A stretch of 32,000 bases of DNA, from the NCBI RefSeq assembly GCF_003044035.1, contig NZ_NVQC01000028.1, forward strand, positions 64,168-96,167, read 5' to 3'. The notes below the pieces were generated by a model. It ran no database searches. It worked only from the letters and a program-made list of their open reading frames with translations, and was not told the origin of the DNA. Below are positions 1 to 27,249 of the stretch, piece by piece. How positions within the stretch are numbered: position 1 is the stretch's first letter; each line of letters opens with the position of its first letter. The position numbers and the translations under genes are program-made. This DNA comes from Candidatus Methylomirabilis limnetica. Lineage in GTDB: Bacteria > Methylomirabilota > Methylomirabilia > Methylomirabilales > Methylomirabilaceae.

Positions 1-2740
1 GCGGTGGGAAGTCTTGGATCTCTATGGTCGGCTCCGAGAGGTCCGAGCTGATCGGCAGGCTTGGATCCTCCACGATGGCCCCCCCTACGCAAATGGCCAC
101 ATTCATATCGGCCATGCACTCAATAAGATATTGAAGGACATCGTCGTCAAGTCGAAGTCGATGTTCGGCTACGACACTGCCTTCGTCCCAGGATGGGATT
201 GCCACGGGCTCCCGATCGAACACCAGGTCGATAAAGACCTGGGTAGTAGGAAAGCGGAGGTGTCGCTGGTCGAGAAGCGGCAGCTCTGTCGGGAGTACGC
301 CGCCAGGTTCATCGATATTCAGCGGGAAGAGTTCAGGCGTCTCGGAGTGCTCGGCAACTGGTCAGACCCCTATCTCACCATGGATTACAAGTATGAGGCG
401 ACGATTGTCCGCGAGTTGGGGAGGTTGTTCGGCGCGGGGGTCGTCTACAAGGGGAAAAAGCCGGTTCACTGGTGCGCCTCTTGCCGGACCGCCTTGGCTG
501 AGGCCGAGGTCGAATACGGCGATCATGCCTCTCCGTCCATCTACGTCAAGTTTCCCCTCGACCCGGGCGCCGCGGAGCGTCTGCCGGTACTGCAGGGCGC
601 ACGATCGTTCGTCGTGATCTGGACCACGACACCATGGACGCTGCCGGCGAATCTGGCTATCGCCGTGCATCCGGATGCATCCTACGCGATCGTCGAAACG
701 TCCGGTGAGTTCTTCATCATCGCCAAAGATCGGCTACAAGAGACGCTTGCAGCCGCAGGAGTAACAGAGAGCCGGGTCGTCGAGGAGATGCCTGGCCGTG
801 CGCTGGAAGGGCTTATGGCCAGACACCCCTGGATTGACCGGGGCTCGAAGGTCGTGCTGGCCGATTACGTCACCATGGATCAGGGCACCGGGTGCGTACA
901 CACGGCTCCGGGGCACGGGGTAGAGGATTACGAGACCGGCATGAAGAACGGCCTCGACATCTATAACCCCGTAGACGCTGCCGGGAGATTCGTCGCGGAC
1001 CTGCCGCTTGTCGGAGGCCTGAGCGTATGGGCGGCCAACAGCACGATCGTTGCAGAGCTTCAGCGCCGAGGTCTCCTGCTATCGGAGGCGAAACTCTCGC
1101 ACTCCTATCCTCATTGCTGGCGGTGCAAGAAACCAACGATCTTCCGGGCGACGGAGCAGTGGTTCGTCTCCATGGACGCCGCGGTCCTGCCTGACGAGGG
1201 GGGCGGGCAGACCGGCCTCCGCGCCAAGGCCCTGGCGGAGATCAAGCAGGTCCAATGGATCCCCTCCTGGGGCGAGGAGAGAATCAGCAATATGGTCGCT
1301 TACCGCTCCGACTGGTGCATCTCGCGACAACGAGTCTGGGGGGTCCCGATCGTCGCCTTCTACTGCACCCATTGCGGCCACATCCTGGCGGACCAGCGAC
1401 TCGCAGAGCACGTCGCGACCATGATCGAACGCGGGGGAGCTGACATCTGGTACACGGCTGCGGCAGCGGACCTGCTTCCGCCCGGGACCGCCTGTCCCAA
1501 CTGTGAGAGGGCCGACTTCGAAAAGGAACGCGACATCCTGGATGTCTGGTTCGATTCCGGTGTGAGCCACGCGGCCGTCCTTGAGGTCCGGCCCGACCAA
1601 CGATGGCCCGCCGACATGTACCTCGAAGGGAGCGATCAGCATCGGGGGTGGTTCCATAGCTCGCTGCTCACCGCGGTCGGAACCCGGGGACGCGCACCAT
1701 ATCGTGCGGTTTTGACCCACGGCTTCGTGGTGGATGGTGCGGGGAAGAAGATGTCCAAGTCCCTCGGCAACGTCGTGGCCCCACAAGAGGTGATTGAACG
1801 GTATGGCGCCGAGATTCTTCGCCTCTGGGTGGCGGCCGAGGACTACCGCGACGATATCCGGATCTCTGAGGAGATCTTAAAGCGGCTGGCTGAAGGATAC
1901 CGACGAATCCGGAATACCTGTCGCTATCTGCTCGGCAACCTGTCCGACTTCCAGCCTGCTCACGATGCGCTGCCGCTCAACGAACTCGATGAGATCGATC
2001 GGTTCATCCTGCACCGGCTAGGGCGGCTCACCGAACGAATACGCCGGGCCTACGAGACCTGCGAGTTTCACCTCCTCTACCATAGCCTGCATAACTTCTG
2101 CGCAGTGGACCTGTCGGCTTTTTACCTGGATGTCCTGAAGGATCGGGTCTATACCTCCGCCCCCCGCTCCCGCGCCCGGCGCGCGGCCCAAACCTCGATG
2201 TATCAGATCCTTGACGCGCTCGTCAGACTCATGGCCCCGGTCCTCTCCTTCACCGCCGATGAGGTCTGGCAGGCGATGCCTAAGCAGGGCGGCGAGATGG
2301 AGAGCGTGCACCTTGCCGAATTCCCGCCCATCCGATCCAGTCTTCTGGACGAAGCCCTTGAAGCCCACTGGGAAGACTTGCTGTCAGTTCGGGATGATGT
2401 GCTGAAAGCCCTCGAAGCCGCTCGCAAAGCCAAGCTCATCGGGACATCACTGGAGGCACGCGTTGACCTCCTGGTAGAGCCCACCTTACTGCCAGTCCTC
2501 ACTCAGTACGAAGCCGATCTGCCGACGCTGTTCATCGTCTCGGCCGTGAGCGTAGGGAGCCTGGCAGAAACAGAGGCGGCCGGAAAAAGGGTTGAGGTGC
2601 GAGTAGGGCGAGCAGAGGGACAGAAGTGCGCCCGCTGCTGGACCTACAGCGAAAGCGTGGGCCGATCCATCCCTTATCCGGATGTCTGCGGCCGCTGCGC
2701 CGGCGTCCTGGAAGAAATAGGGTATGGGGACAGGGTATAG
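1..2740 (+). CDS. ileS: Isoleucyl-tRNA synthetase, 5' end outside window
   Basis: Frame is open to the window start. Class-I HIGH motif (PYANGHIHIGH), KMSKS (KKMSKS) and WCISRQRVWG are present, with C-terminal CARC...CGRC zinc knuckles. About 30 N-terminal codons appear to lie upstream. Confidence 0.95.
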   Translation, partial: RWEVLDLYGRLREVRADRQAWILHDGPPYANGHIHIGHALNKILKDIVVKSKSMFGYDTAFVPGWDCHGLPIEHQVDKDLGSRKAEVSLVEKRQLCREYAARFIDIQREEFRRLGVLGNWSDPYLTMDYKYEATIVRELGRLFGAGVVYKGKKPVHWCASCRTALAEAEVEYGDHASPSIYVKFPLDPGAAERLPVLQGARSFVVIWTTTPWTLPANLAIAVHPDASYAIVETSGEFFIIAKDRLQETLAAAGVTESRVVEEMPGRALEGLMARHPWIDRGSKVVLADYVTMDQGTGCVHTAPGHGVEDYETGMKNGLDIYNPVDAAGRFVADLPLVGGLSVWAANSTIVAELQRRGLLLSEAKLSHSYPHCWRCKKPTIFRATEQWFVSMDAAVLPDEGGGQTGLRAKALAEIKQVQWIPSWGEERISNMVAYRSDWCISRQRVWGVPIVAFYCTHCGHILADQRLAEHVATMIERGGADIWYTAAAADLLPPGTACPNCERADFEKERDILDVWFDSGVSHAAVLEVRPDQRWPADMYLEGSDQHRGWFHSSLLTAVGTRGRAPYRAVLTHGFVVDGAGKKMSKSLGNVVAPQEVIERYGAEILRLWVAAEDYRDDIRISEEILKRLAEGYRRIRNTCRYLLGNLSDFQPAHDALPLNELDEIDRFILHRLGRLTERIRRAYETCEFHLLYHSLHNFCAVDLSAFYLDVLKDRVYTSAPRSRARRAAQTSMYQILDALVRLMAPVLSFTADEVWQAMPKQGGEMESVHLAEFPPIRSSLLDEALEAHWEDLLSVRDDVLKALEAARKAKLIGTSLEARVDLLVEPTLLPVLTQYEADLPTLFIVSAVSVGSLAETEAAGKRVEVRVGRAEGQKCARCWTYSESVGRSIPYPDVCGRCAGVLEEIGYGDRV

Positions 2741-2800
2741 GGTAAATGACCAAGGATTTATGCACCTCGCACCCCCCACTCCGCATCCTAAATCCTCCCA

Positions 2801-2853: not shown

Positions 2854-3342
2854 ATGCGGTTCTATGCTGTCGCTCTGACGGTCATCCTGCTCGATCAGGC
2901 TTCAAAGCTGTTGATCCAGGCCACGATGCCACTCGGCCACAGCATCCCCATCATCTCCGATCTCTTCGCGATCGTCCATGTCATGAACCCAGGCGCGGCA
3001 TTCGGCCTCCTGGCCGATCAAGCTGCATGGGTTCGCAAACCTCTCTTCATTGGCGTCTCTCTCCTGGCCATCGGGTTCATCCTGTACCATCGCCATTGCA
3101 GGGTTGACGATCATCCGCTTACTATGCTCGGGTTGAGCCTGATCCTTGGGGGCGCTGTTGGCAACTTGGTGGATCGATTGAGAATCGGCATGGTCATCGA
3201 CTTCATCGATGTTCATTACTATCAGTACCACTGGCCTGCATTCAATGTCGCGGACTCCGCCATCACCGTCGGCGTGTCGCTCATGATGCTCACGTTGATC
3301 CTTGGAGAACGTCGGGAGCGAGATCGGGGGCGGGCCTCATGA
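2854..3342 (+). CDS. lspA: Lipoprotein signal peptidase (signal peptidase II)
   Basis: 162 aa multi-TM protein with NPGAAFG and FNVADSAITVG motifs. The ileS-lspA order is the classical one. Confidence 0.9.
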   Translation: MRFYAVALTVILLDQASKLLIQATMPLGHSIPIISDLFAIVHVMNPGAAFGLLADQAAWVRKPLFIGVSLLAIGFILYHRHCRVDDHPLTMLGLSLILGGAVGNLVDRLRIGMVIDFIDVHYYQYHWPAFNVADSAITVGVSLMMLTLILGERRERDRGRAS

Positions 3343-4415
3343 GCGGCGATGAGATTCGCGAACTCATAGCTGACGGCTCGGCCACCGACCTGCGCCTGGA
3401 CCGCTACCTCTCTACCGCGACAGGGCTCCCACGATCACAGATCCAGCGCCTCATCAAAGCCGACCGGGTGCTGGTCGATGGTCGCCACCCAAAGGCGAGC
3501 GCCACGGCTCACCCGGGCCAGCACATCAGCCTCTCTATCCCTCCGCCACAGCCGTCCACCCTCACACCCGAACCGATTCCCCTCGACATCCTGTACGAAG
3601 ATACTGACATTCTGGTCCTGAATAAGTCGGCTGGGCTTGTCGTGCACCCCGCCCCCGGGCATCAGACCGGGACGCTGGTCCACGCCATCCTGCATCACTG
3701 TCCGGATTTACCCGGGATCGGCGAGGAACGACGGCCAGGGATCGTTCACCGGCTCGACAAAGAGACCTCTGGGGTGATGGTCGTGGCTAAAACCGATACG
3801 GCCATGGCCTCGCTCGCCACACAATTTAAAGGACGTCGAGTGAAGAAGACCTACATCGCGCTGGTGCATGGCGAGGTCAAGCAGCCGGAGGGGAAAATCG
3901 AGGCCGACATCGGCCGTCACGAACGGGATCGAAAGCGGATGGCGGTGTGCACACGCAAAGGTCGGGAGGCGGTGACCATCTACCGGGTGATGAAGCGCCT
4001 CAATGGCTCCACACTGCTACAGCTCCAGCCACACACCGGCAGAACCCACCAGATCCGGGTCCACCTGTCCGCGATCGGACACCCGGTGGTGGGCGATAAG
4101 CTATATGGGGGACGAAGGGAAAGGAAATGGCGAATGGAGAGTGGAGAGTGGAGAGTGGAGGCGGAGCGACACCTCCTGCATGCCTGGAAACTCGGTCTGT
4201 TCCACCCGAGGACTGATGAGTGGATGGAGTTTGAAGCCCCGCTGCCGCTGGACTTCACAAGCTGGCTTCACGCAGAACCATCGACGGGAACCACCCCGCT
4301 CGGATCCCCTCCCGCCAGCGGTTCTTCCGGGCACCTCGCACCCCGCACTTCGCACCGTTCACGGTTTCTCCACCGTCACGATTCTGGTGGAGCCACACCG
4401 CAGGATCTTTCCTAG
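3339..4415 (+). CDS. rluD: RluA-family 23S rRNA pseudouridine synthase (RluD-like)
   Basis: S4-like N-terminus and catalytic HRLDKETSGVMVVAK motif. ATGA start/stop overlap with lspA. The last ~50 codons are a low-complexity P/S/G/R tail, and a heptamer array is embedded at 4124-4165. Confidence 0.85.
   Translation: MSGDEIRELIADGSATDLRLDRYLSTATGLPRSQIQRLIKADRVLVDGRHPKASATAHPGQHISLSIPPPQPSTLTPEPIPLDILYEDTDILVLNKSAGLVVHPAPGHQTGTLVHAILHHCPDLPGIGEERRPGIVHRLDKETSGVMVVAKTDTAMASLATQFKGRRVKKTYIALVHGEVKQPEGKIEADIGRHERDRKRMAVCTRKGREAVTIYRVMKRLNGSTLLQLQPHTGRTHQIRVHLSAIGHPVVGDKLYGGRRERKWRMESGEWRVEAERHLLHAWKLGLFHPRTDEWMEFEAPLPLDFTSWLHAEPSTGTTPLGSPPASGSSGHLAPRTSHRSRFLHRHDSGGATPQDLS
4124..4165 (+). repeat. 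Six phased heptamers (GAAATGG CGAATGG AGAGTGG x3 AGGCGGA) inside rluD
   Basis: Read directly. Three units are perfect and three degenerate. The array encodes KWRMESGEWRVEAE. Confidence 0.8.
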
Positions 4416-4928
4416 TGACAGGTCGAGTGCCATCACGCGAAGGTCCGCACTCCAATAGCACTCGGGGTCCTTGCAAGGACAAGGCCTGACAACTAAGCCA
4501 TTGATCGTCGGTTCTATAGGGGCGGAATGTTCAGTAAAAGCCCCAACCGCTGCCGCGTAGTCGGCGCGATTGGCGGCGCACCATAACTGCTAGTCCCCGT
4601 TCGAATCGATACAGGCTCAGCTAAAGAGACACCGCGATTCGAGCCAACGGCCAGTGACGTTCTCGGCCTTCCGACTGACTACAACATCCTTAGTCCATCG
4701 AGAGGCGAGACAATTTGCTCGCGGTTTGAAGGTTCACTACGAGCGGCGGGTTGTCACTTACTCACCTGCCAACCGCTGCAACATGGCGACTTTCCCCTAT
4801 CAGGCAGAGAAGAACTCCGGCGGTGTAGCAGTTTTATTGGAGAGGTACCCCAACCTTCAGCTTGCTGAGGCGTTTCTACGACGATTTTATGAGATTGCGT
4901 GATCCTGAAGCTGCATCTACTGGAACAA

Positions 4929-5021
4929 CTAGGCCATGAACGAAAGTACCATAGCAACCGTCACGAAGAGCAACAAACCACCAGCCGCAATCCACAGCAA
5001 TATTGTATCGCCACCATCCAT
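4929..5021 (-). CDS. Small hydrophobic protein, 30 aa (MDGGDTILLWIAAGGLLLFVTVAMVLSFMA)
   Basis: ATG start with AAGGGGGA 5 nt upstream. Tandem paralog of 5038..5127, with mostly synonymous or conservative differences. One predicted TM helix. Below the ORF-track size cutoff. Confidence 0.5.
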   Translation of the reverse strand: MDGGDTILLWIAAGGLLLFVTVAMVLSFMA

Positions 5022-5037
5022 TGAAGTCCCCCTTAGT

Positions 5038-5127
5038 TTAGATAAACGAAATCACCATAGCAACCGTCACGAAGGTCAACAAGCCACCAGCCGCAAGCCA
5101 CAACAGTATCGTATCACCTCGATCCAC
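5038..5127 (-). CDS. Small hydrophobic protein, 29 aa (VDRGDTILLWLAAGGLLTFVTVAMVISFI, GTG start)
   Basis: GTG start with AAAGGGGG 6 nt upstream. Stops 16 nt before the SD/ATG of the downstream paralog. Confidence 0.45.
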   Translation of the reverse strand: MDRGDTILLWLAAGGLLTFVTVAMVISFI

Positions 5128-5201
5128 TGAAGCCCCCTTTATTTTACTGGTTAGTGATTACCCCGGTCATTCCACAACATCCACCGCCAGATGTGTTTCG
5201 G

Positions 5202-5230
5202 ATTGTATCCTACAGAGGTCAACCTTGCAA
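5202..5230 (-). promoter_or_regulatory. Sigma70-like promoter TTGCAA-N17-TACAAT for the mini-ORF pair
   Basis: The hexamers and the 17-nt spacer were counted on the minus strand, about 70 nt upstream of the GTG at 5127. Confidence 0.35.
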
Positions 5231-5907
5231 CTATCTATGAAGAACCGGTCTCGTAACGAGTATAGCAACGACGGAGCCACCCTACCAGCGTAGTATAACA
5301 TCCCGCAGTTCAGAAACCTAACGAAAGCTTTGCCGCATCGGCCCACACCATTCTTCCCGGAACCCGTAAGGACGGCAGCTCGCAACCCCGCTTTTTTTGC
5401 TGCCATGAGCCTTTGTTCCATGCAGATCAATCTTAGGTAGATCTTCTCTGTGTGCCTGATTGGAGCCGACGGCCAACGCCAACGTAGAAGTCGATATGTC
5501 CTTCGATTAAGAGCAGTCCGGAACTCTACTCTCTGACATGCAAACTTCGTGAAGAAAGTTAACTGAGGTAGAACCTATTGTCAAGACAAAAATGCAGTAT
5601 CTGGACAGGGCGATGTGACGTCCCATCCACGCTCTCTCGTTCGCCTAACAAGGGCTCTCTGGCGTGGTTGACGAACGCCTCAAAGACCGCGCCAGGGAAG
5701 GGGGGTTCCTCGCACCTTTTGGGGTGGTTTACTGGCCCGAGCAGGCGCACCGGGAGCAATGGAAAGAAGGAATCCCCTGAGCACCGCTGACTAGAACTCC
5801 TCGGAATGGGCATCAGTGAGCCGGCGAGTATGCCAATGTCAATATAGGGATCGCTCGTACCACTCGCCGCAGAAAACGGGTACTATTTTAGAGTGGTTAC
5901 TCACCCA

Positions 5908-5936
5908 TTGACACGATACCCGGAGAGAGTTATATC
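5908..5936 (+). promoter_or_regulatory. Sigma70-like promoter TTGACA-N17-TATATC upstream of the usp gene
   Basis: Consensus -35 and near-consensus -10 with 17-nt spacing. It would give a ~115-nt leader. Confidence 0.35.
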
Positions 5937-11202: not shown

Positions 11203-11953
11203 AAATAGGTACGGGCACTATTTCGTAAGACCCTTTCTTGGTCTTCCTCTATGCGAAACGCTTATAACTCGCCCCAGTTTCCTGCTCAATTCCCCGATGA
11301 ACCCATCCCTCCCCAGTGGTCGCCCTGTCATAGTGTGCCTTCGAATCGTTTCCACGTCTGGGGCATTATCGTCCAAATCGATGTGTTCTCTCCATGACTC
11401 CATGGAAACGCCCACTGATTCCTTTATCTCAATGACATCGACCATCTCACTCGTTCCACCGATGTGAGCGGCCGCACTGGACCATTTCCATTGCCAAGGC
11501 CTGTTGACCATCCTGGCCCGCACCGGATTCCTCTCAACATATCGCATTGCCGCCATAAGATACGGCTCATCAAGCAGACAGGAATAAAAGCGTCCCTGCC
11601 ACAAGTGCCCGGAGGCCTTTCTCTCTTTGTTGAAATACTGAGCATACCGCATATGGGCCACGCTGAACACTTTAGCCAACGATGCCTCTTCCTGCGGTTG
11701 GACAATGAAATGAACGTGATTGTCCATTAAGCAATAGGCCCATATCGACAGGTGAAATTTGCGGCTGTATTCATTAACCCAGGATAAGTATCGAGAACGA
11801 TCTTCGTCGTTACGAAAGACCGCCTGGCGATAATTCCCTCTTTGCGTAATATGGTAAGGGTGGCCGGGTGCAACGATTCGAGCAATCCGTGGCATGCAAG
11901 ATCATTAGAGCAAACACCCTAAATTGTCAAATAAATAGTGTCTGTCCCTATTT
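11203..11953 (-). mobile_element. Compact Y1-transposase unit bounded by inverted 21-bp hairpin motifs
   Basis: AAATAGGTACGGGCACTATTT (11203-11223) and the reverse complement of 11933-11953 (AAATAGGGACAGACACTATTT) match 18/21. Each is itself AAATAG-N9-CTATTT. Confidence 0.55.
11218..11895 (-). CDS. IS200-like / REP-associated tyrosine (Y1, HUH) transposase family protein
   Basis: MPRIARIVAPGHPYHITQRGNYRQAVF and the HUH motif CLMDNHVHFIV. The 225-aa length is typical of RAYT-like proteins. Confidence 0.8.
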   Translation of the reverse strand: MPRIARIVAPGHPYHITQRGNYRQAVFRNDEDRSRYLSWVNEYSRKFHLSIWAYCLMDNHVHFIVQPQEEASLAKVFSVAHMRYAQYFNKERKASGHLWQGRFYSCLLDEPYLMAAMRYVERNPVRARMVNRPWQWKWSSAAAHIGGTSEMVDVIEIKESVGVSMESWREHIDLDDNAPDVETIRRHTMTGRPLGRDGFIGELSRKLGRVISVSHRGRPRKGLTK

Positions 11954-14833: not shown

Positions 14834-15802
14834 TTAGGAAGACCCCTCCAACTGCTTGCGGAAGTATTCGATGGTGAGCACAAGCCCTTCAGCGATCTGC
14901 ACCTTCGGCTCCCAGCCGAGTTTAGCCCTTGCCAAGCCAATATCCGGTTGACGGACACGAGGATCATCCAGCGGCAACGGGCAGATCTCAATGCCTGTGG
15001 TGAGGGCTGTCGAACCAGCAGACTGACCGCCGATTGACTTCAAGACCATGTGGGCAAGCTCAATCACCGTGAATTCATTGGGGTTCCCAACGTTGACTGG
15101 GTTGACCTCGTCCGACATCAACAGGCGGTACAGCCCTTCGACTAAATCAGAGACGTAACAGAAGCTTCGGGTCTGTAACCCGTCACCATACACCGTCAGG
15201 GGCTCGTCGCGCAGCGCCTGGTTGATGAAATTGGACACGACGCGTCCGTCGTTGGGTCGCATCCGGGGTCCATACGTATTAAAGATCCTGGCGATTCGGG
15301 TATCAAGCCCATGATACCGGTGATACGCCATAGTCATCGCTTCAGCGAACCGCTTCGCCTCGTCATACATCCCACGTGGTCCGATCGGATTCACGTTGCC
15401 CCAGTACTCCTCCCGCTGGGGGTGGATCAAGGGGTCGCCGTAGACCTCTGATGTCGATGCGAGCAGGAAGCGGGCGCCTTTGGCCTTGGCCAGGCCCAGG
15501 GCCTTGTGAGTTCCGAGAGAGCCAACCTTGAGGGTCTGGATCGGAAGGCGCTGATAATCGACGGGACTGGCCGGAGAGGCGAAATGGAGCACATAGTCCA
15601 GCGGGCCGTCGATGTACAGATACTCGGTGACGTCCTGCTTGATGAAACGGAACGCATCGTGCCCGCCCAAGTGGGCGACGTTGTCTATCCGGCCGGTGCT
15701 CAGGTTATCGAGACAGACGACCTCATGTCCTTCCTCGATCAAACGGTCGCACAGGTGGGAACCCAGAAATCCGACCCCACCCGTAATCAGTGCACGAGAC
15801 AT
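14834..15802 (-). CDS. UDP-glucuronate decarboxylase (UDP-xylose synthase), SDR family
   Basis: [16 protein letters not shown] Rossmann motif, YDEAKR catalytic motif and UXS-like length. GAGAGGAG SD. Confidence 0.85.
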
Positions 15803-15911
15803 GGAACTCCTCTCATCGCCCGATCCCCATGTATTCGAACCCCATGGCCTTCATCTTGATCCAGAGCTGATCCTTCGGCTTCTTAAGCGCCTGCGCAATC
15901 GTAACTCTCAG

Positions 15912-16083
15912 GTGTTCAGGCTGTAGGCTGAAGGCTGTTAGTCTCTGCGCATGGACTGAACCAAGGGCCCAGATACCTTTTCGGTCTCCATCATTTTCGC
16001 GTCACATTCAGAAAACGCCTGGCTCATCTGTGCGCGTTCCAACAGTCTAAAAGACTACAGCCTATCTACCTGAGTAGTTACGC
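15912..16083 (+). repeat. ~170-bp repeat, copy 1 (twin at 20676-20838)
   Basis: Hand alignment gives about 89% identity over ~158 nt with two 1-nt indels. The 5' end carries AGGCTGN heptamers and the 3' end carries CAGTCT/CAGCCT words in inverse orientation. Confidence 0.85.
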
Positions 16084-16186
16084 AGGATCTTCAATAACAT
16101 ACTCCTGCCAATCGAGCCCTACCCTCGCGAACGCGATCTGGACGAGCTACCGAACTGAATAGGTCTCGCCTGTGGCGATGACGTAA

Positions 16187-17260
16187 TCATCGAGGCCCAC
16201 CCGCAAGCTTCCTGACCTCCTGTGCCCGCTCCTTGGGACAGACCAGTACACCGTCCTTGGACGCTACCACAATCATCTCCGACAGCCCGACGGTTGCCAC
16301 CCGCGGCCCGGTCGAGACAATGACCGACTGCGTCGTATCCAGGAGATGCACCTCACCCACGATCACGTTGCCGTCATCGTCTACGGGCAGCACTCGAGCC
16401 AACGCATCCCAGGTTCCCAGATCATCCCAGGCGAAATCGGCCCTGACCATCGCAACCCCCTCCCCCATCCGCTCCAACACGCCGTAATCTACCGACTGCT
16501 TCTTGAACGCGCTGTACTCCCGTTCCAGCGCCTCCTGTACCCCCCACGCCTCGCGGATGCGACAGAGGCCCGCCCACACCTCCGGCATATGCCTGGCAAG
16601 CAGACTTTGAATGGCGACATTTCGCCAGAGGAAGATGCCGCTGTTCCAGTAGTGATACCCGTCTGTTGCCAAACGCTCGGCCGTCTGCCGATCCGGTTTC
16701 TCCAGAAATCGACGGACGCGAAAAGCGCCGGGAGGCGAGGCCAGCGGCTCGCCGACCTCCAGATATCCGTACCCGGTCTCTGGCCGGGCAGGGGGGATTC
16801 CGAACATCACGACCCAGTCCGAGTATGAGGCGAGCAGCTCGGTCGCCCGGCGCACTCCTGCCGCAAACGCCTCGCCATCAGGAACGTAGTGATCAGCCGG
16901 CAAAGCAATCATGACCGCTTCAGGGTCAAGTCGCTCGAGGTGCAGCGAAGCGATCCCAATGGCTGCTGCGGTATCCATACCCTGCGGCTCGAGCAGGAGA
17001 TTAGCTACGGGGAGCTCCGGGAGCTGCTCTCGGACGAGGTCGCCATGCTTTTGCTCAACGACCACGACAATCTGGACCCAGGGCAGCAGGAGCCGCACCC
17101 GCCGGACCGTCGCCTGCAGGAGCGATTCGCTCCCGATCAAGCGAAGGAAGGCCTTGGGTTGTGCTTCCGTGCTGAGCGGCCAGAAGCGCTCGCCCTTCCC
17201 GCCGGCAAGCACCACCGCGAAGACATGGGGGTTACTGCTCGTCGCTCCGCCCGTAGTCAT
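16187..17260 (-). CDS. manC: Mannose-1-phosphate guanylyltransferase (nucleotidyltransferase domain only)
   Basis: VVLAGGKGERFWPLS and LPADH motifs. The start is uncertain (ATG 17260 or 17281; the ORF-track start 17314 is TTG). It overlaps the upstream cupin gene. Confidence 0.8.
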   Translation of the reverse strand: MTTGGATSSNPHVFAVVLAGGKGERFWPLSTEAQPKAFLRLIGSESLLQATVRRVRLLLPWVQIVVVVEQKHGDLVREQLPELPVANLLLEPQGMDTAAAIGIASLHLERLDPEAVMIALPADHYVPDGEAFAAGVRRATELLASYSDWVVMFGIPPARPETGYGYLEVGEPLASPPGAFRVRRFLEKPDRQTAERLATDGYHYWNSGIFLWRNVAIQSLLARHMPEVWAGLCRIREAWGVQEALEREYSAFKKQSVDYGVLERMGEGVAMVRADFAWDDLGTWDALARVLPVDDDGNVIVGEVHLLDTTQSVIVSTGPRVATVGLSEMIVVASKDGVLVCPKERAQEVRKLAGGPR

Positions 17261-17591
17261 CCTGGAGTCGAACAATGTCATCCTCCCCGAGGTAGGCGCC
17301 GTTTTGAATTTCAATAATGGTGAGTAGATGTGGCCCGGGATTCTCGATCCGGTGATCTGTCCCTGCCGGCACGAACGTCGATTCCTGGGCGGAAATGACT
17401 AAGGCCTGGTTCCCGATTATCACCTTGGCCGTGCCGGCCACAACAACCCAGTGCTCGCTCCTGGAAGCGTGTCGCTGCAGACTCAGACGATGCCCGGGAT
17501 TGACCTCAATCCGCTTGACCTTGTATCCCTCTCCCTCCCCAAGGACTGTCCAGCGTCCCCAGGGCCGCGTTGAGGTCAGTACTGTTTGCAT
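17232..17591 (-). CDS. Cupin-type mannose-6-phosphate isomerase domain protein (ManC C-terminal-domain homolog)
   Basis: RPWGRW...YKVKRIEVNPGHRLSLQRHASRSEHWVVV.G.A...FVPAGTDHRIEN is the type II PMI cupin signature. Confidence 0.8.
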   Translation of the reverse strand: MQTVLTSTRPWGRWTVLGEGEGYKVKRIEVNPGHRLSLQRHASRSEHWVVVAGTAKVIIGNQALVISAQESTFVPAGTDHRIENPGPHLLTIIEIQNGAYLGEDDIVRLQDDYGRSDEQ

Positions 17592-17622
17592 GTGATCCCT
17601 CGTCTGCTCCTTAGAAATAAGC

Positions 17623-17711
17623 GTTCAGCCATCAGCACTCAGCCGTTAGCTTCAGATAAAGCAGAGGGGTACATCAAAAGAACCGATAGCTGATCGCTGA
17701 AAGCTGATAGC
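17623..17711. repeat. Heptamer-armed inverted repeat (GTTCAGC CATCAGC ACTCAGC CGTTAGC ... GCTGATC GCTGAAA GCTGATA)
   Basis: Read directly in the rfbB/cupin intercistronic spacer. Confidence 0.65.
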
Positions 17712-17766
17712 TTCCCCAGAGTTACATTTCCGTGGGCCGCAGTGCGGTAGTGCCTCTCATGGGGTG

Positions 17767-18789
17767 TTACTGAGATACGTGCGAGAGGTCCCCGTACGTC
17801 TTTTGGTAATACTCCCGATACTCCCCCGCTTTGATGCGCGTCCACCAGGTCACGTGATCCTCATACCAGCCGACCGTTTCCTTGAGCCCCGTCTCAAAGG
17901 GAATGCGAGGTCTCCAGCCCAGCTTTCGCTCCAACTTCGACATATCGAGGGCGTACCTTCGATCATGTCCGAGCCGGTCTTCGACGTGTACGATCAGAGA
18001 ATCGGGCTTACCCAGGGTCCTCAGGATATGGCGAGCTACGTCAATGTTGGCCCGCTCGCATTTGCCGCCGATATTATAAATCTCACCATTATGCCCATTC
18101 CTCAAAATCAGCGCCAACGCCTCGCAGTGGTCCTGCACGTGCAGCCACTCGCGGACCTGGAGGCCGTCGCCGTAAAGCGGAAGCGCTTCACCGGCAATGG
18201 CATTGGTGATAAAGAGCGGAACCGCCTTCTCTGGAAACTGGTAGGGACCATAGTTGTTGGAGCTCCGGGTGATGATCGCCGGTAACCCGTAGGTACGAAC
18301 GTAGGCCGCAACCAGAAGGTCTCCCGCCGCCTTGCTGGCGGCATAGGGGCTGTTTGGAGAGAGAGGGCTGTCTTCCCTAAAGTACCCTGAAGGCCCGAGC
18401 GAGCCATATACTTCATCAGTCGATACCTGCACCATCCTTGGAACCCGATGCCGACGGCACGCATCCAGAATGACCTGCGTCCCAAGCGTATTGGTCTCCA
18501 CGAATGCCCTCGCATCCTGGATACTTCGATCCACGTGCGATTCGGCCGCGAAGTTCATCAGCGCATCGAACCGCTCCTTCAAGATGGCGTCTACCAACTC
18601 AACGTCGCAGATACTCCCCTTGATAAATCGGTATCGAGGATCGCGCTCAACGTCGGCCAGATTCTCGAGGTTGCCGGCGTAGGTCAGCTTGTCGAGATTC
18701 ACGACGCCGCAATCCGGCTCTGTCGCGAGCATGTGGCGAATGAAGTTCGACCCGATAAATCCGGCTCCACCGGTCACCACGATTCTCAT
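17767..18789 (-). CDS. rfbB: dTDP-glucose 4,6-dehydratase
   Basis: VTGGAGFIGSNF, STDEVYG and YAASKAA motifs. 340 aa. Confidence 0.92.
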   Translation of the reverse strand: MRIVVTGGAGFIGSNFIRHMLATEPDCGVVNLDKLTYAGNLENLADVERDPRYRFIKGSICDVELVDAILKERFDALMNFAAESHVDRSIQDARAFVETNTLGTQVILDACRRHRVPRMVQVSTDEVYGSLGPSGYFREDSPLSPNSPYAASKAAGDLLVAAYVRTYGLPAIITRSSNNYGPYQFPEKAVPLFITNAIAGEALPLYGDGLQVREWLHVQDHCEALALILRNGHNGEIYNIGGKCERANIDVARHILRTLGKPDSLIVHVEDRLGHDRRYALDMSKLERKLGWRPRIPFETGLKETVGWYEDHVTWWTRIKAGEYREYYQKTYGDLSHVSQ

Positions 18790-18800
18790 TGTTCAAACAC

Positions 18801-18897
18801 GTTTCGAGTTTCGGGTTTCGGGTTCCAAGACGGACACGCATCTTCAGCCGTGGAACCCCGGCCTGGACTCGAAACTCGCAACTCGAAACTCGAAACT
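18801..18897. repeat. Heptamer-armed inverted repeat (GTTTCGA GTTTCGG GTTTCGG GTTCCAA ... ACTCGAA ACTCGCA ACTCGAA ACTCGAA)
   Basis: Read directly in the rfbC/rfbB spacer. The arms are reverse complements (TTCGAGT / ACTCGAA). Confidence 0.7.
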
Positions 18898-18901
18898 GGC
18901 T

Positions 18902-19363
18902 TCATCCCAGCTTCACTGCCCAATCGTATGGGATATCCGGACTGTCAGGGGGGATTCGAAACTCATCCGGCTCCTGGTAATTGTAGAGCTCGGTCGGGAA
19001 ATTCATAATCGCCGACATCCGGTCGCCTACCGCCTTGTACCCATGGATCACCAGGGGCGGGATCTTGACCAACATCGGATTCTGCTCACCGATGAAAAAC
19101 TCATTGAGCAAGCCTTTTGTGGGAGAGTTGTCGCGGGAATCGAACAGAACAACCTTGGACATTCCGAGGACCCCGACAAAGTGGTCGGTCTGTTTCTTAT
19201 GATAGTGCCACCCCTTCACCACCCCGGGATAGGCGGCAGTGATGTAGGCCTGCCCAAATCGCTCGAACTCCTCCCAGTCGCTGCGCAGCATCTCTGTAAG
19301 GAAACCTCTCTCATCAGGAACCCGCCGTAGCTGTCTAGTTTTCACACCATCAATAAGCATCAT
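18902..19363 (-). CDS. rfbC: dTDP-4-dehydrorhamnose 3,5-epimerase-like cupin (short form)
   Basis: DERGFLTE, KGWHYHKKQTD and PPLVIHGY motifs. ATG at 19363 or 19360 (19366 is GTG). Confidence 0.8.
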   Translation of the reverse strand: MMLIDGVKTRQLRRVPDERGFLTEMLRSDWEEFERFGQAYITAAYPGVVKGWHYHKKQTDHFVGVLGMSKVVLFDSRDNSPTKGLLNEFFIGEQNPMLVKIPPLVIHGYKAVGDRMSAIMNFPTELYNYQEPDEFRIPPDSPDIPYDWAVKLG

Positions 19364-19370
19364 CACCCCT

Positions 19371-19412
19371 CAACCTTGAACCTTGCACGTTGAACCTTGA
19401 ACGTTGAACTTT
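19371..19412. repeat. Six phased heptamers CAACCTT GAACCTT GCACGTT GAACCTT GAACGTT GAACTTT
   Basis: Read directly. The array fills the rfbA/rfbC spacer almost completely. Confidence 0.7.
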
Positions 19413-19413
19413 T

Positions 19414-20478
19414 TTACACCAACCCCACCTGGCTGCTATCCCCGAGCATCAGTCGATAGGCCTTCGGTTTCCCGTCAGACCGGAACACCTCGACGTTCTT
19501 TCCGATGAGACTATCCTCCAACCTCCCGCCGATATCGGTAATGCGGCACTGGTCGAGGATGATGCTATGCTCGATCTCACTATTCTGCACCAGTGTGTCA
19601 TGATATATGGAGGTGAACGGCCCAATGTAGGAGTTGATGATGCGGCAGCGCCTGCCGATGATTGCCGGCCCTCGAATGGTGCTGGCCGTAACGCTCGCCC
19701 CCTGCTCCACGATCACCTTTCCGATAAGGTGTGAGGCCTCGTCCACTTCTCCCTCTACCCTGGGGGTGATCGCCTCCAACATGATCCTATTTGCCTCGAG
19801 CATGTCTTCAAGCTTCCCCGTATCTTTCCACCAGCGGCTGATGATATGGGGATGGACCTGATATCCTTTGTCGATCAGATACTGGATGGCGTCGGTGATC
19901 TCCAACTCGCCCCGCGCCGAAGGCTGTATGGCATGAACCGCCTCAAAGATCGTCTGGTCGAACATATAGACACCCACGAGCGCCAGATCGCTTTTAGGGT
20001 GCGCCGGCTTCTCCTCCAGAGAGATTACCTGACCATCTCGAAGCTCCGCCACCCCGAACCGCTGTGGATCGCGAACCCTTGCCAGAAGGATCTGAGAGTT
20101 GGCGCCCGACCGCTCGAACTCTTCTACCAGGGAGCAAATCCCGTCCTTGATCAGGTTATCTCCCAGATACATCACGAAGGGATGATTCCCCAGAAACGGC
20201 TCAGCGATCTTGACTGCATGGGCGAGTCCAAGGGGCGCTTCTTGCTCGATATATGAGACCTCGATGCCCCATTGCGCCCCGTCCCCCACCGCCCCCTGAA
20301 TCTCACGCTTCGTGTCGCCAACCACGATCCCAACCTCCCGGATCTTGGCCGCCGCCATTGCTTCCAGCGCATAGAAGAGGATCGGTTTGTTGGCGATAGG
20401 CACGAGCTGCTTGGCGCTGGTGTGGGTGATCGGACGCAGGCGGGTCCCCTTGCCTCCGCTCAAGATCAATGCCTTCAT
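19414..20478 (-). CDS. rfbA: Glucose-1-phosphate thymidylyltransferase, long form with C-terminal left-handed beta-helix
   Basis: MKALILSGGKGTRLRPITHTSAKQLVPIANKP, with hexapeptide-repeat-like C-terminal third. Confidence 0.9.
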   Translation of the reverse strand: MKALILSGGKGTRLRPITHTSAKQLVPIANKPILFYALEAMAAAKIREVGIVVGDTKREIQGAVGDGAQWGIEVSYIEQEAPLGLAHAVKIAEPFLGNHPFVMYLGDNLIKDGICSLVEEFERSGANSQILLARVRDPQRFGVAELRDGQVISLEEKPAHPKSDLALVGVYMFDQTIFEAVHAIQPSARGELEITDAIQYLIDKGYQVHPHIISRWWKDTGKLEDMLEANRIMLEAITPRVEGEVDEASHLIGKVIVEQGASVTASTIRGPAIIGRRCRIINSYIGPFTSIYHDTLVQNSEIEHSIILDQCRITDIGGRLEDSLIGKNVEVFRSDGKPKAYRLMLGDSSQVGLV

Positions 20479-20597: not shown

Positions 20598-20626
20598 ATT
20601 GTACGGAAGGAGACTCGGCTTGTCAA
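20598..20626 (-). promoter_or_regulatory. Consensus sigma70 promoter TTGACA-N17-TACAAT for the rfbA operon
   Basis: Both hexamers and the 17-nt spacer were counted on the minus strand, about 115 nt upstream of the rfbA ATG. Confidence 0.45.
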
Positions 20627-20675: not shown

Positions 20676-20838
20676 GTGTTTAGGCTGAAGGCTGTTAGTC
20701 TTTGCGCATGGACCGAATCAAGGAGTCCAGAACCTTTTCGATCTCCATTATTTTCGCGTCGCATTCGGAGACGCCTGGCTCATCCGTGCGCGTTCCTACA
20801 GTCTAAAAGACTACAGTCTATCTACCTCAGTAGTTACG
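20676..20838 (+). repeat. ~165-bp repeat, copy 2 (twin at 15912-16083)
   Basis: See copy 1. Same orientation. It lies just upstream (in operon sense) of the rfbA promoter. Confidence 0.85.
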
Positions 20839-27112: not shown

Positions 27113-27249
27113 CCCTCTTTTCCAAAGAGGGGGACTAACCGTTTCCCCCTTTGAAAAAGGGGGCGGGGGTTTATCTTGAATGGAGGACACCATGATGCGC
27201 CGGAGGGCGGAGGGAGAAACCCCCTTCGATCCCCCTTTGCCAAAGGGGG
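27113..27249. repeat. Cluster of three G/C hairpin repeat units (27113-27133, 27145-27175, 27216-27249)
   Basis: CCCTCTTT-TCC-AAAGAGGG; CCCCCTTT-GAA-AAAGGGGG+CGGGGGTTTATC; inverted copy GAAACCCCCTTCGAT+CCCCCTTTG-C-CAAAGGGGG. Same family as 2801-2836. Confidence 0.65.

Follow-up and report, generated by a model that had tools for sequence, protein, structure and literature searches.

The spacers between rmlA, an rmlC-like gene, rmlB and a cupin gene, in a sugar-nucleotide operon of Candidatus Methylomirabilis limnetica, were each found to be occupied by tandem arrays of 7-nt units, with a unit sequence that differs from spacer to spacer. These genes are found on the minus strand within the 32,000-nt stretch analyzed here (contig NZ_NVQC01000028.1, positions 64,168 to 96,167), which we term the window. 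The arrays appear to take two forms, a single direct array (rmlA-rmlC) or two inverted arrays that would build an imperfect hairpin of 110-130 nt (rmlC-rmlB and rmlB-cupin). The 112-nt module between rmlC and rmlB has changed far less between lineages than codon position 3 of the genes beside it, and we tentatively suggest that such modules act as intercistronic stem-loops.

Period-7 arrays and hairpins in the operon spacers

Every heptamer unit of the original prediction was present where it had been placed, the sole offset being 1-2 nt (the right arm in the rmlB-cupin spacer begins at 17689, versus 17690 in that prediction), and unit length was, as it had claimed, constant at 7 while unit sequence differed between spacers. 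Read in the sense direction, the rmlA-rmlC array consists of AAGTTCA, ACGTTCA, AGGTTCA, ACGTGCA, AGGTTCA and AGGTTG, followed by the ribosome-binding site GAGGGGTG; Tandem Repeats Finder described this array as period 7 with 5.4 copies and also called a period of 14. The same program placed period-7 arrays at 17685-17712, 18801-18824, 18867-18897 and 19372-19409. In the GCTGANN unit, two positions vary freely. A lag-p self-match scan detected 8 period-7 arrays in the window, compared to 0.47 expected (maximum of 2) from 30 dinucleotide-preserving shuffles. The other periods from 4-13, as well as 15, were at background, and 14 (i.e., 2 x 7) was not. These results establish that the phased arrays are real and specific to period 7. 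Only the four spacers that follow one another in this gene string reached lag-7 scores of at least 9, and none of the window's 15 other intergenic regions did so. The spacers were identical across four independent assemblies, so the arrays are not an assembly artefact. The proposal that such arrays are placed systematically between cistrons held for this operon and for the rodA-ileS-lspA genes, and it failed for the majority of the remaining co-directional spacers in the window.

Reverse-complementary arms, predicted for two of the three spacers, were recovered in rmlC-rmlB and rmlB-cupin and are lacking in rmlA-rmlC. The arms of the 112-nt rmlC-rmlB module are 83-87% complementary over 23-29 nt, and its predicted RNA fold has an energy of -43.5 kcal/mol in sense (z = -2.9) and -43.3 kcal/mol in antisense (z = -3.8). 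For the rmlB-cupin module the values were -42.5 kcal/mol (z = -2.7) in sense and -33.9 kcal/mol (z = -1.8) in antisense. Folding thus yielded two long imperfect hairpins, and the rmlA-rmlC array was unstructured (sense, -7.8 kcal/mol, z = -0.1; antisense, -4.3 kcal/mol, z = -0.75). The anticipated pairing in several registers was also observed, with base-pair probabilities in rmlC-rmlB divided ∼70:25 between partners 7 nt apart. The stem of this module begins 5 nt past the rmlC TGA stop codon and ends 11 nt short of the rmlB ATG. No Rfam family matched the window at gathering score, and the sole sub-threshold match was a chance microRNA match.

The promoter-like site upstream of rmlA (Table 1) is a candidate operon promoter according to its consensus match alone, and no promoter-like site was detected within 17592-17766, 18790-18901 or 19367-19413. 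This arrangement is consistent with a single transcript, and the inverted modules would fold in an mRNA read in that way. Intrinsic terminators were considered and rejected, as no terminator-like site (GC-rich stem plus U-tract) is present in the three spacers.

Table 1. Positions of the arrays, genes and elements discussed in the text (window coordinates unless a comparison contig is named)
Feature	Positions	Strand	Remarks
Gene string of six open reading frames	14834-20478	-	
Promoter-like site TTGACA-17-TACAAT	20598-20626	-	11/12 consensus match; ~120 nt upstream of rmlA
rmlA, long form	19414-20478	-	TIGR01208, 480 bits, above cut-off
rmlA-rmlC spacer, 47 nt	19367-19413	-	Six-heptamer direct array at 19371-19412
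RmlC-like cupin, 154 aa	18902-19366	-	TIGR01221, 38 bits (cut-off 156)
rmlC-rmlB spacer, 112-nt hairpin module	18790-18901	-	
rmlC-rmlB left arm	18801-18828	+	GTTTCGA/GTTTCGG
rmlC-rmlB right arm	18867-18897	+	ACTCGAA
rmlB	17767-18789	-	
rmlB-cupin spacer, 175 nt, imperfect hairpin	17592-17766	-	Conserved core CAGC/GCTG
rmlB-cupin left arm	17623-17650	+	GTTCAGC CATCAGC ACTCAGC CGTTAGC
rmlB-cupin right arm	17685-17712	+	GATAGCT GATCGCT GAAAGCT GATAGCT
ManC-type C-terminal cupin	17232-17591	-	
ManC nucleotidyltransferase	16187-17314	-	
NAD-dependent epimerase/dehydratase	14834-15802	-	
Miniature transposable element, ~185 nt	15905-16095		manC-epimerase spacer (15803-16186)
Second copy of the element	20681-20838		90% identical; upstream of rmlA
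Y1 transposase, 225 aa	11218-11895	-	NF047646 (REP-associated tyrosine transposase), 75 bits (cut-off 80)
ATAGGGT x4 array	2717-2744	+	At ileS stop codon
GCACCTC-type array	2762-2785	+	ileS-lspA spacer
AGGGTNN x4 / NNACCCT x4 hairpin	L165 6976-7050		rodA-ileS spacer, just upstream of window
TGGAGAG-type array, in frame	4126-4160	+	Inside rluD-type pseudouridine synthase open reading frame 3339-4415
GCACCTC-type array	4331-4355	+	Part of rluD C-terminal tail

Conservation, exchange and wider distribution of the arrays

The 112-nt module was 93-97% identical to that of the window in L004, L011, L085, L088 and L089 (L numbers denote comparison loci or contigs, with the window as the reference), and its length and unit numbers were kept exactly across lineages. 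When the window was compared with L004 and L011, the module was 93% identical, versus 57% for codon position 3 and ∼89-90% for positions 1+2 of the flanking rmlC and rmlB (binomial p values of 4e-17 and 1e-17 against position 3). These figures are evidence that the constraint on this one module equals that on non-synonymous positions in the neighboring genes. Identity dropped at the spacer borders of the module, which rules out a recombination tract as the source of this conservation. In the same comparison the unpaired and non-repetitive center of the module had ∼4-5 differences per 24 nt (∼80% identity, counted by eye). The conservation of the module and of its center argues against neutral, slippage-prone filler, and purifying selection is the best explanation that the aligned sequences suggest. 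A small gene within the spacer was also considered; the frame past the rmlC stop codon is open and is out of frame with rmlB, and by inspection such a gene is unlikely. In L088 and L089 the RmlC-like gene is reduced to its last ∼47 codons, and the hairpin downstream of it is intact and 97% identical to that of the window.

The closest genomes were Candidatus Methylomirabilis metagenome-assembled genomes, with rmlB up to 93% identical; other close loci were of Methylomirabilota type, at 79-82% identity, and one was labeled Patescibacteria. The latter (L003, DATMXF010000088.1, "Patescibacteria group bacterium") carries a Methylomirabilis-type operon with 80-90% protein identity and the same spacer arrays, and given this content it is probably mis-binned. 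A GTTCAAN array directly follows the rmlA stop codon in all compared relatives except L004/L011, which have a GTTTCGA hairpin in this spacer, and L091, which has a GTGCGAG-type hairpin. The array ranges from ∼1 to 6 units among relatives, with no variation among near-identical strains, and merges gradually into GNGCGAG units, which provide the ribosome-binding site. The 112-nt rmlC-rmlB hairpin, always of the same length, was present in the window, L085, L088/L089, L011 and L004. At this position L001, L086, L087 and L095 have a 2-nt junction (TAGCCATG or TAGCTATG), L003 has an array-free spacer of 11 nt, L002 has an ACCCTCT-type array, and L091 has GTGCGAG-type hairpins. Close relatives in which rmlC and rmlB are 2 nt apart thus do without the hairpin. 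In the rmlB-cupin spacer, the cupin-proximal GCTGANN array was common to L001 only, where a G/C-rich palindrome stands in for the other arm. This palindrome (2365-2410 in L001, at the place of the heptamer arm in the window) belongs to a family, AAATCC..CCCCCTTTGCAAAGGGGG..GGATTT, with window copies at 2790-2845, 27113-27131, 27145-27163 and 27231-27249. As judged from these alignments, the spacers are modular and exchangeable. A second 112-nt module with GTTTCGA/GAAAC(C/T)C arms and an unrelated loop occupies the rmlA-rmlC spacer of L004 and L011.

Period-7 arrays occurred at a density of 19 per 100 kb in Methylomirabilis-type loci; rml loci of other bacteria, 1.57 Mb in all, had 1.8 per 100 kb, and other periods were flat in the same comparison. 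Since the Methylomirabilis loci are orthologous in part, they are not independent; a non-redundant set of 39 kb, made up of the window and the 7 kb upstream of it, gave ∼18 per 100 kb. This 39 kb contains ∼10 arrays of at least 6-7 unit families, all intergenic apart from a pair within rluD and one that spans the ileS stop codon. Some families recur, with AGGGT-type arrays at 2717 and in rodA-ileS and GCACCTC-type arrays at 2762 and 4331. The TGGAGAG array of rluD encodes roughly RMESGEWRVEAE, which is situated between the catalytic domain and a conserved LHA..L.F.HP motif, and both rluD arrays are identical in six assemblies but for one single-nucleotide polymorphism. Downstream of rluD, an unusually long gene-free stretch of 1.5 kb (4416-5936) includes a 106-bp tandem duplication (4936-5146) with copies that are 84% identical; nothing in Rfam matched this duplication.

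The same kinds of units were detected in uncultured phage contigs by exact-pattern scans of IMG/VR. GTTTCGA arrays were present in 13 viral contigs and GCTGANN x4 arrays in at least 120. Eighty of the latter (689 kb) contained 307 period-7 arrays, versus no more than 54 for any other period; because contigs were chosen for holding one array, these densities are biased upward, and the many different units per contig are still informative. In L176, which encodes terminase, portal and tail proteins, many spacers have heptamer arrays or heptamer-armed hairpins with a different unit each time; its terminase-portal spacer, between co-directional genes, has a hairpin of one of the unit families shared with the window. 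In L177 a GTTTCGA hairpin follows the portal gene (4700-4800), and L221 and L222 have NNTCAGC...GCTGANN hairpins, of the rmlB-cupin type, in nearly every gene gap. An inverted partner within 200 nt accompanied ∼20% of the arrays in the phage sets versus ∼1% in the control, and 4 of 7 in the window region. A search for the hosts of these contigs gave no cultured relative with protein identity higher than 33%. The phage contigs also carry units resembling the cyanobacterial short tandemly repeated repetitive (STRR) units and the TAACTGA units considered below.

Neighboring genes and transposable elements

Because the RmlC-like cupin matches TIGR01221 far below the cut-off (Table 1), rfbC is a loose name for its gene. 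Downstream of rmlB, a ManC-type enzyme (16187-17591, minus strand) is split and permuted. Its cupin (mannose-6-phosphate isomerase) domain is encoded by a separate open reading frame of 119 aa that sits upstream of the nucleotidyltransferase frame and overlaps it by 83 nt.

The ∼185-nt element next to the manC genes has 14-bp terminal inverted repeats, GTAACT(A/C)(C/T)TCAGGT (GTAACTACTCAGGT), and subterminal arrays of the heptamer AGGCTGT (15918-15937). In a 99.7%-identical strain this element is newly inserted in the mreB-mreC spacer (L167 2383-2574 versus L165 ∼2575) with an 8-bp target duplication, GAGATACC. Heptamer arrays thus belong, in some cases at least, to an active transposable element. 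Terminal repeats, target duplication and insertion polymorphism, the full set of features of a miniature inverted-repeat element, were all observed for the 185-nt element. The three operon spacers have inverted arms (two of three) and presence/absence variation. They lack a target duplication, further full-length copies within the sequence compared, BLAST similarity to the 185-nt element and any terminal motif beyond the arrays. Homology between this element and the rmlB-cupin module was rejected, since BLAST gave no significant match despite their common GTAACTCT start and GCTG-type units. The original prediction of a mobile or expanding repeat class gained support as a dynamic, partly mobile one, with modules gained or lost and an adjacent heptamer-ended element that has a target-site duplication. 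Short-read contigs (L082) break at copies of the 185-nt element. Beside the inserted element, 16090-16186 (minus strand) holds a degraded GDP-mannose 4,6-dehydratase fragment, as does the manC-epimerase spacer of L095; the remnant peptide (DYVIATGETYSVR, a stop, LVQIAFARVGLDW...) matched Pfam GDP_Man_Dehyd with E = 6.6e-5 when the stop was read as Q.

The window also encodes a Y1 transposase whose gene is flanked by two inverted 21-nt palindromic copies of AAATAG-N9-CTATTT (11203-11223 and 11933-11953). Inverted palindromes flanking the gene are the classic layout for transposases of the type associated with repetitive extragenic palindromic (REP) sequences. A REP/REPIN link of the heptamers to this gene was rejected because it is flanked by 21-mers rather than by heptamer arrays. 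An integron attC site is an imperfect palindrome that ends in single core sites (GTTRRRY / RYYYAAC) and lies near an integrase. Such sites were also rejected, as neither GTTTCGA nor GTTCAAG fits RRR at positions 4-6, each arm is a tandem array, and no integrase was among the Pfam matches of the window.

Interpretation and comparison with known repeat classes

The account that we tentatively prefer, as a possibility still short of an even chance, holds that slippage makes the modules, lineages exchange them, and the hairpins punctuate the polycistronic mRNA, with the rmlC-rmlB module under selection. Arrays with a fixed 7-nt unit and a locus-specific sequence would accumulate in the short spacers of the Methylomirabilis lineage; units may arise and change in number via slipped-strand mispairing in 7-nt steps, and whole modules may be gained, lost and swapped between lineages. 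If the operon is transcribed as one mRNA, its two inverted modules would fold into stem-loops of ∼35-40 bp between stop and start codons. Such stem-loops could be endonucleolytic processing sites and/or hairpin-protected ends that set segment-specific mRNA stability, and they could also draw the upstream stop and downstream start together. A role of this kind has been proposed for the STRR hairpins between hupS and hupL, and it has been demonstrated for the intercistronic stem-loops of phage T7 (RNase III sites) and for REP elements, which set the stability of mRNA segments. The direct rmlA-rmlC array is most likely a half-module or a plain repeat that also supplies the ribosome-binding site. 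The account draws on the excess at period 7, the hairpin energies and register slippage, the lack of promoter-like or terminator-like sites within the spacers, the variation of copy number and modules among relatives, the recurrence of unit families, the conservation of the 112-nt module and the hairpins of the phage contigs.

Several results weigh against this account. The rmlC-rmlB hairpin is replaced by a 2-nt junction in relatives at 93% protein identity and thus is dispensable for the pathway, and the arrays are invariant within near-identical strains, so they are not fast contingency loci. Compensatory changes were absent (0 of 33 pairs in 5 orthologues), and the variation that does occur breaks pairs and is too small to decide. 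G-U pairs become A-C mismatches on the other strand, so a hairpin selected in mRNA should fold better in sense. No consistent sense-strand folding advantage was evident among 12 Methylomirabilis modules, and the 33 phage modules that lie between co-directional reading frames showed a weak trend the other way, with antisense folding slightly better in 22 versus 11 (p = 0.07; gene orientation was called crudely from open reading frame length and third-position GC content). This strand-asymmetry test leaves an RNA role neither supported nor excluded and lowers our confidence in it. Arm-to-arm copy correction or a DNA-level function could be other sources of the constraint.

The arrays might instead be a neutral by-product of lineage-specific 7-nt replication slippage (the polymerase footprint proposed by Mrazek) and template-switch inverted duplication, which would leave arrays and quasi-palindromes in any spacer able to bear them, with no role in expression; this we regard as somewhat unlikely. 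A fixed unit length with a sequence that differs by locus is what such a process would leave, and the lack of both covariation and sense-strand advantage fits it, as do the varying copy number in rmlA-rmlC, the replacement or absence of spacers in relatives with an intact operon, the arrays found within rluD and at the ileS stop codon, which one of them spans, and the single rmlB-cupin arm of L001. The occurrence of the trait in host genomes and phage contigs alike is likewise expected of replication machinery. However, the rmlC-rmlB module changes as fast as codon positions 1+2 rather than 3 and keeps a fixed length and fixed unit numbers, the opposite of what a slippage-prone array should do; being constrained in sequence, it is not neutral filler. 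In addition, slippage that depends on length only does not predict the same unit sequences in unrelated contigs, and compact phage genomes hold arrays in most of their gaps.

Quite unlikely is an origin of the modules as non-autonomous mobile elements, akin to miniature inverted-repeat elements or REPINs, with arms that are heptamer arrays bound by a transposase and with insertion between genes. A bona fide 185-nt element adjoins the operon, with two copies in the window, contig breaks and a new insertion marked by GAGATACC; the rmlC-rmlB module shows clean presence/absence; a paralogous module, equal in arms and length, occupies the rmlA-rmlC spacer of L004 and L011; and a REP-associated-type tyrosine transposase gene lies within the window. 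Yet the three spacers have neither a target-site duplication nor a terminal motif beyond the arrays, the rmlB-cupin module has no significant similarity to the 185-nt element, and the transposase-like gene has 21-mers of a separate kind at its flanks. Moreover, the rmlC-rmlB module is found at the same site in divergent lineages with its locus-specific loop conserved, which argues for vertical inheritance rather than repeated insertion.

Very unlikely is a function of the heptamers as multivalent RNA or DNA sites for a repeat-reading protein (a translational regulator, as proposed for the TAACTGA repeats, or a phage or host regulator) with the hairpin secondary: conservation at the level of sequence rather than pairing, the same unit sequences in distant contigs, a single-stranded rmlA-rmlC array that abuts the start codon like the TAACTGA arrays (PMC4679880), and arms that are kept while loops diverge between paralogous modules speak for it, but for the at least 6-7 unrelated units in 39 kb there would have to be many binding proteins or one of great tolerance, no protein emerged as a candidate, and two GCTGANN positions vary freely.

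Returning to the stem-loop account, a bolder extension would make the heptamer-armed hairpins a widespread, undescribed class of selected intercistronic elements in some bacteria, NC10 among them, and in their phages, with the 112-nt module as a conserved member. This we consider unlikely; such a class would be read by a common factor, a ribonuclease or a 7-nt-measuring protein that punctuates transcripts or DNA. The natural allelic pairs of one operon with and without the hairpin module allow a clean expression comparison and, if the account is true, would put the function of STRR-type repeats, a question dating from 1990, to a direct test. The locus adds a new phylum, NC10, which includes nitrite-dependent methane oxidizers. 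The conservation of one module and the distribution in phages are the parts that a specialist would not have expected, and the occurrence of the same unit families in phage gene gaps suggests a phenomenon broader than the literature found. In practical terms, the heptamer repeats and the 185-nt element break short-read Methylomirabilis assemblies.

The cyanobacterial STRR heptamers, reportedly described by Mazel et al. in 1990, form a unit set of CCCCAGT, TTGGTCA and CAACAGT that recurs at many loci. They had been named as the precedent, and they are the right one, with 7-nt units, intergenic positions and inverted arrays. The view that heptamer-armed hairpins between cistrons lack a precedent was not supported. 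STRR hairpins between hupS and hupL have proposed roles in mRNA stability or translational coupling (PMC2670836), and in the Nostoc hyp operon the repeats differ from one intergenic region to the next, and several are heptamer arrays (PMC2408588, Table 3). We found no report in the literature searched of heptamer repeats in Methylomirabilis or of heptamer hairpins in phage genomes. Like STRR sequences, the arrays consist of tandem 7-nt units of several families per genome, are mostly intergenic and often within operons, include inverted arrays able to form hairpins, and vary between related strains (PMC2670836, PMC2408588); dispersed, mainly intergenic loci were found here in a 39-kb sample. 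They differ in belonging to NC10 (Methylomirabilota) rather than to heterocystous cyanobacteria, and in their units (GTTTCGA, GTTCAAG, GCTGANN, AGGGTNN and GTGCGAG), none of which is an STRR1-3 unit though units recur between loci. Two further differences are that one module is constrained in sequence across species and that the same units occur in uncultured phage contigs.

In many bacteria no other long simple repeats are as over-represented as heptamers, for which a polymerase-slippage hypothesis was advanced (Mrazek 2007, as summarized in PMC4679880 and PMC4692102), and TAACTGA arrays lie just upstream of start codons in Beggiatoaceae (PMC4679880). The arrays exceed chance in the 5-11-nt range of unit lengths and are mostly non-coding, as are long simple repeats of the Mrazek type. 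With the Mrazek heptamers, the GGGAATC-type repeats of Xanthomonas and Nostoc (PMC4692102) and the TAACTGA repeats (PMC4679880), the likeness extends to an excess at period 7 only, intergenic location, length and sequence variation between related genomes, occasional inverted pairs and arrays immediately upstream of starts. In contrast to those repeats, in which one unit dominates per genome, nearly every locus here has its own unit, and because the units are not G-rich they have no quadruplex potential.

REP sequences, bacterial interspersed mosaic elements and phage T7 RNase III sites share the intercistronic position, the stable imperfect stems and the lack of a U-tract. REPs are single palindromes of 20-40 nt with a conserved tetranucleotide, not tandem heptamers, and the analogy is functional only. 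With miniature inverted-repeat elements, the 185-nt element shares its repeats, 8-bp duplication, several copies and heptamers near both ends, and the hairpin modules share an arm-loop-arm layout with presence/absence variation, but no target duplication or terminal motif was detected in the latter. The arrays belong to the STRR or heptameric simple-repeat class, of which, as far as the literature searched shows, they are a new lineage example from NC10.

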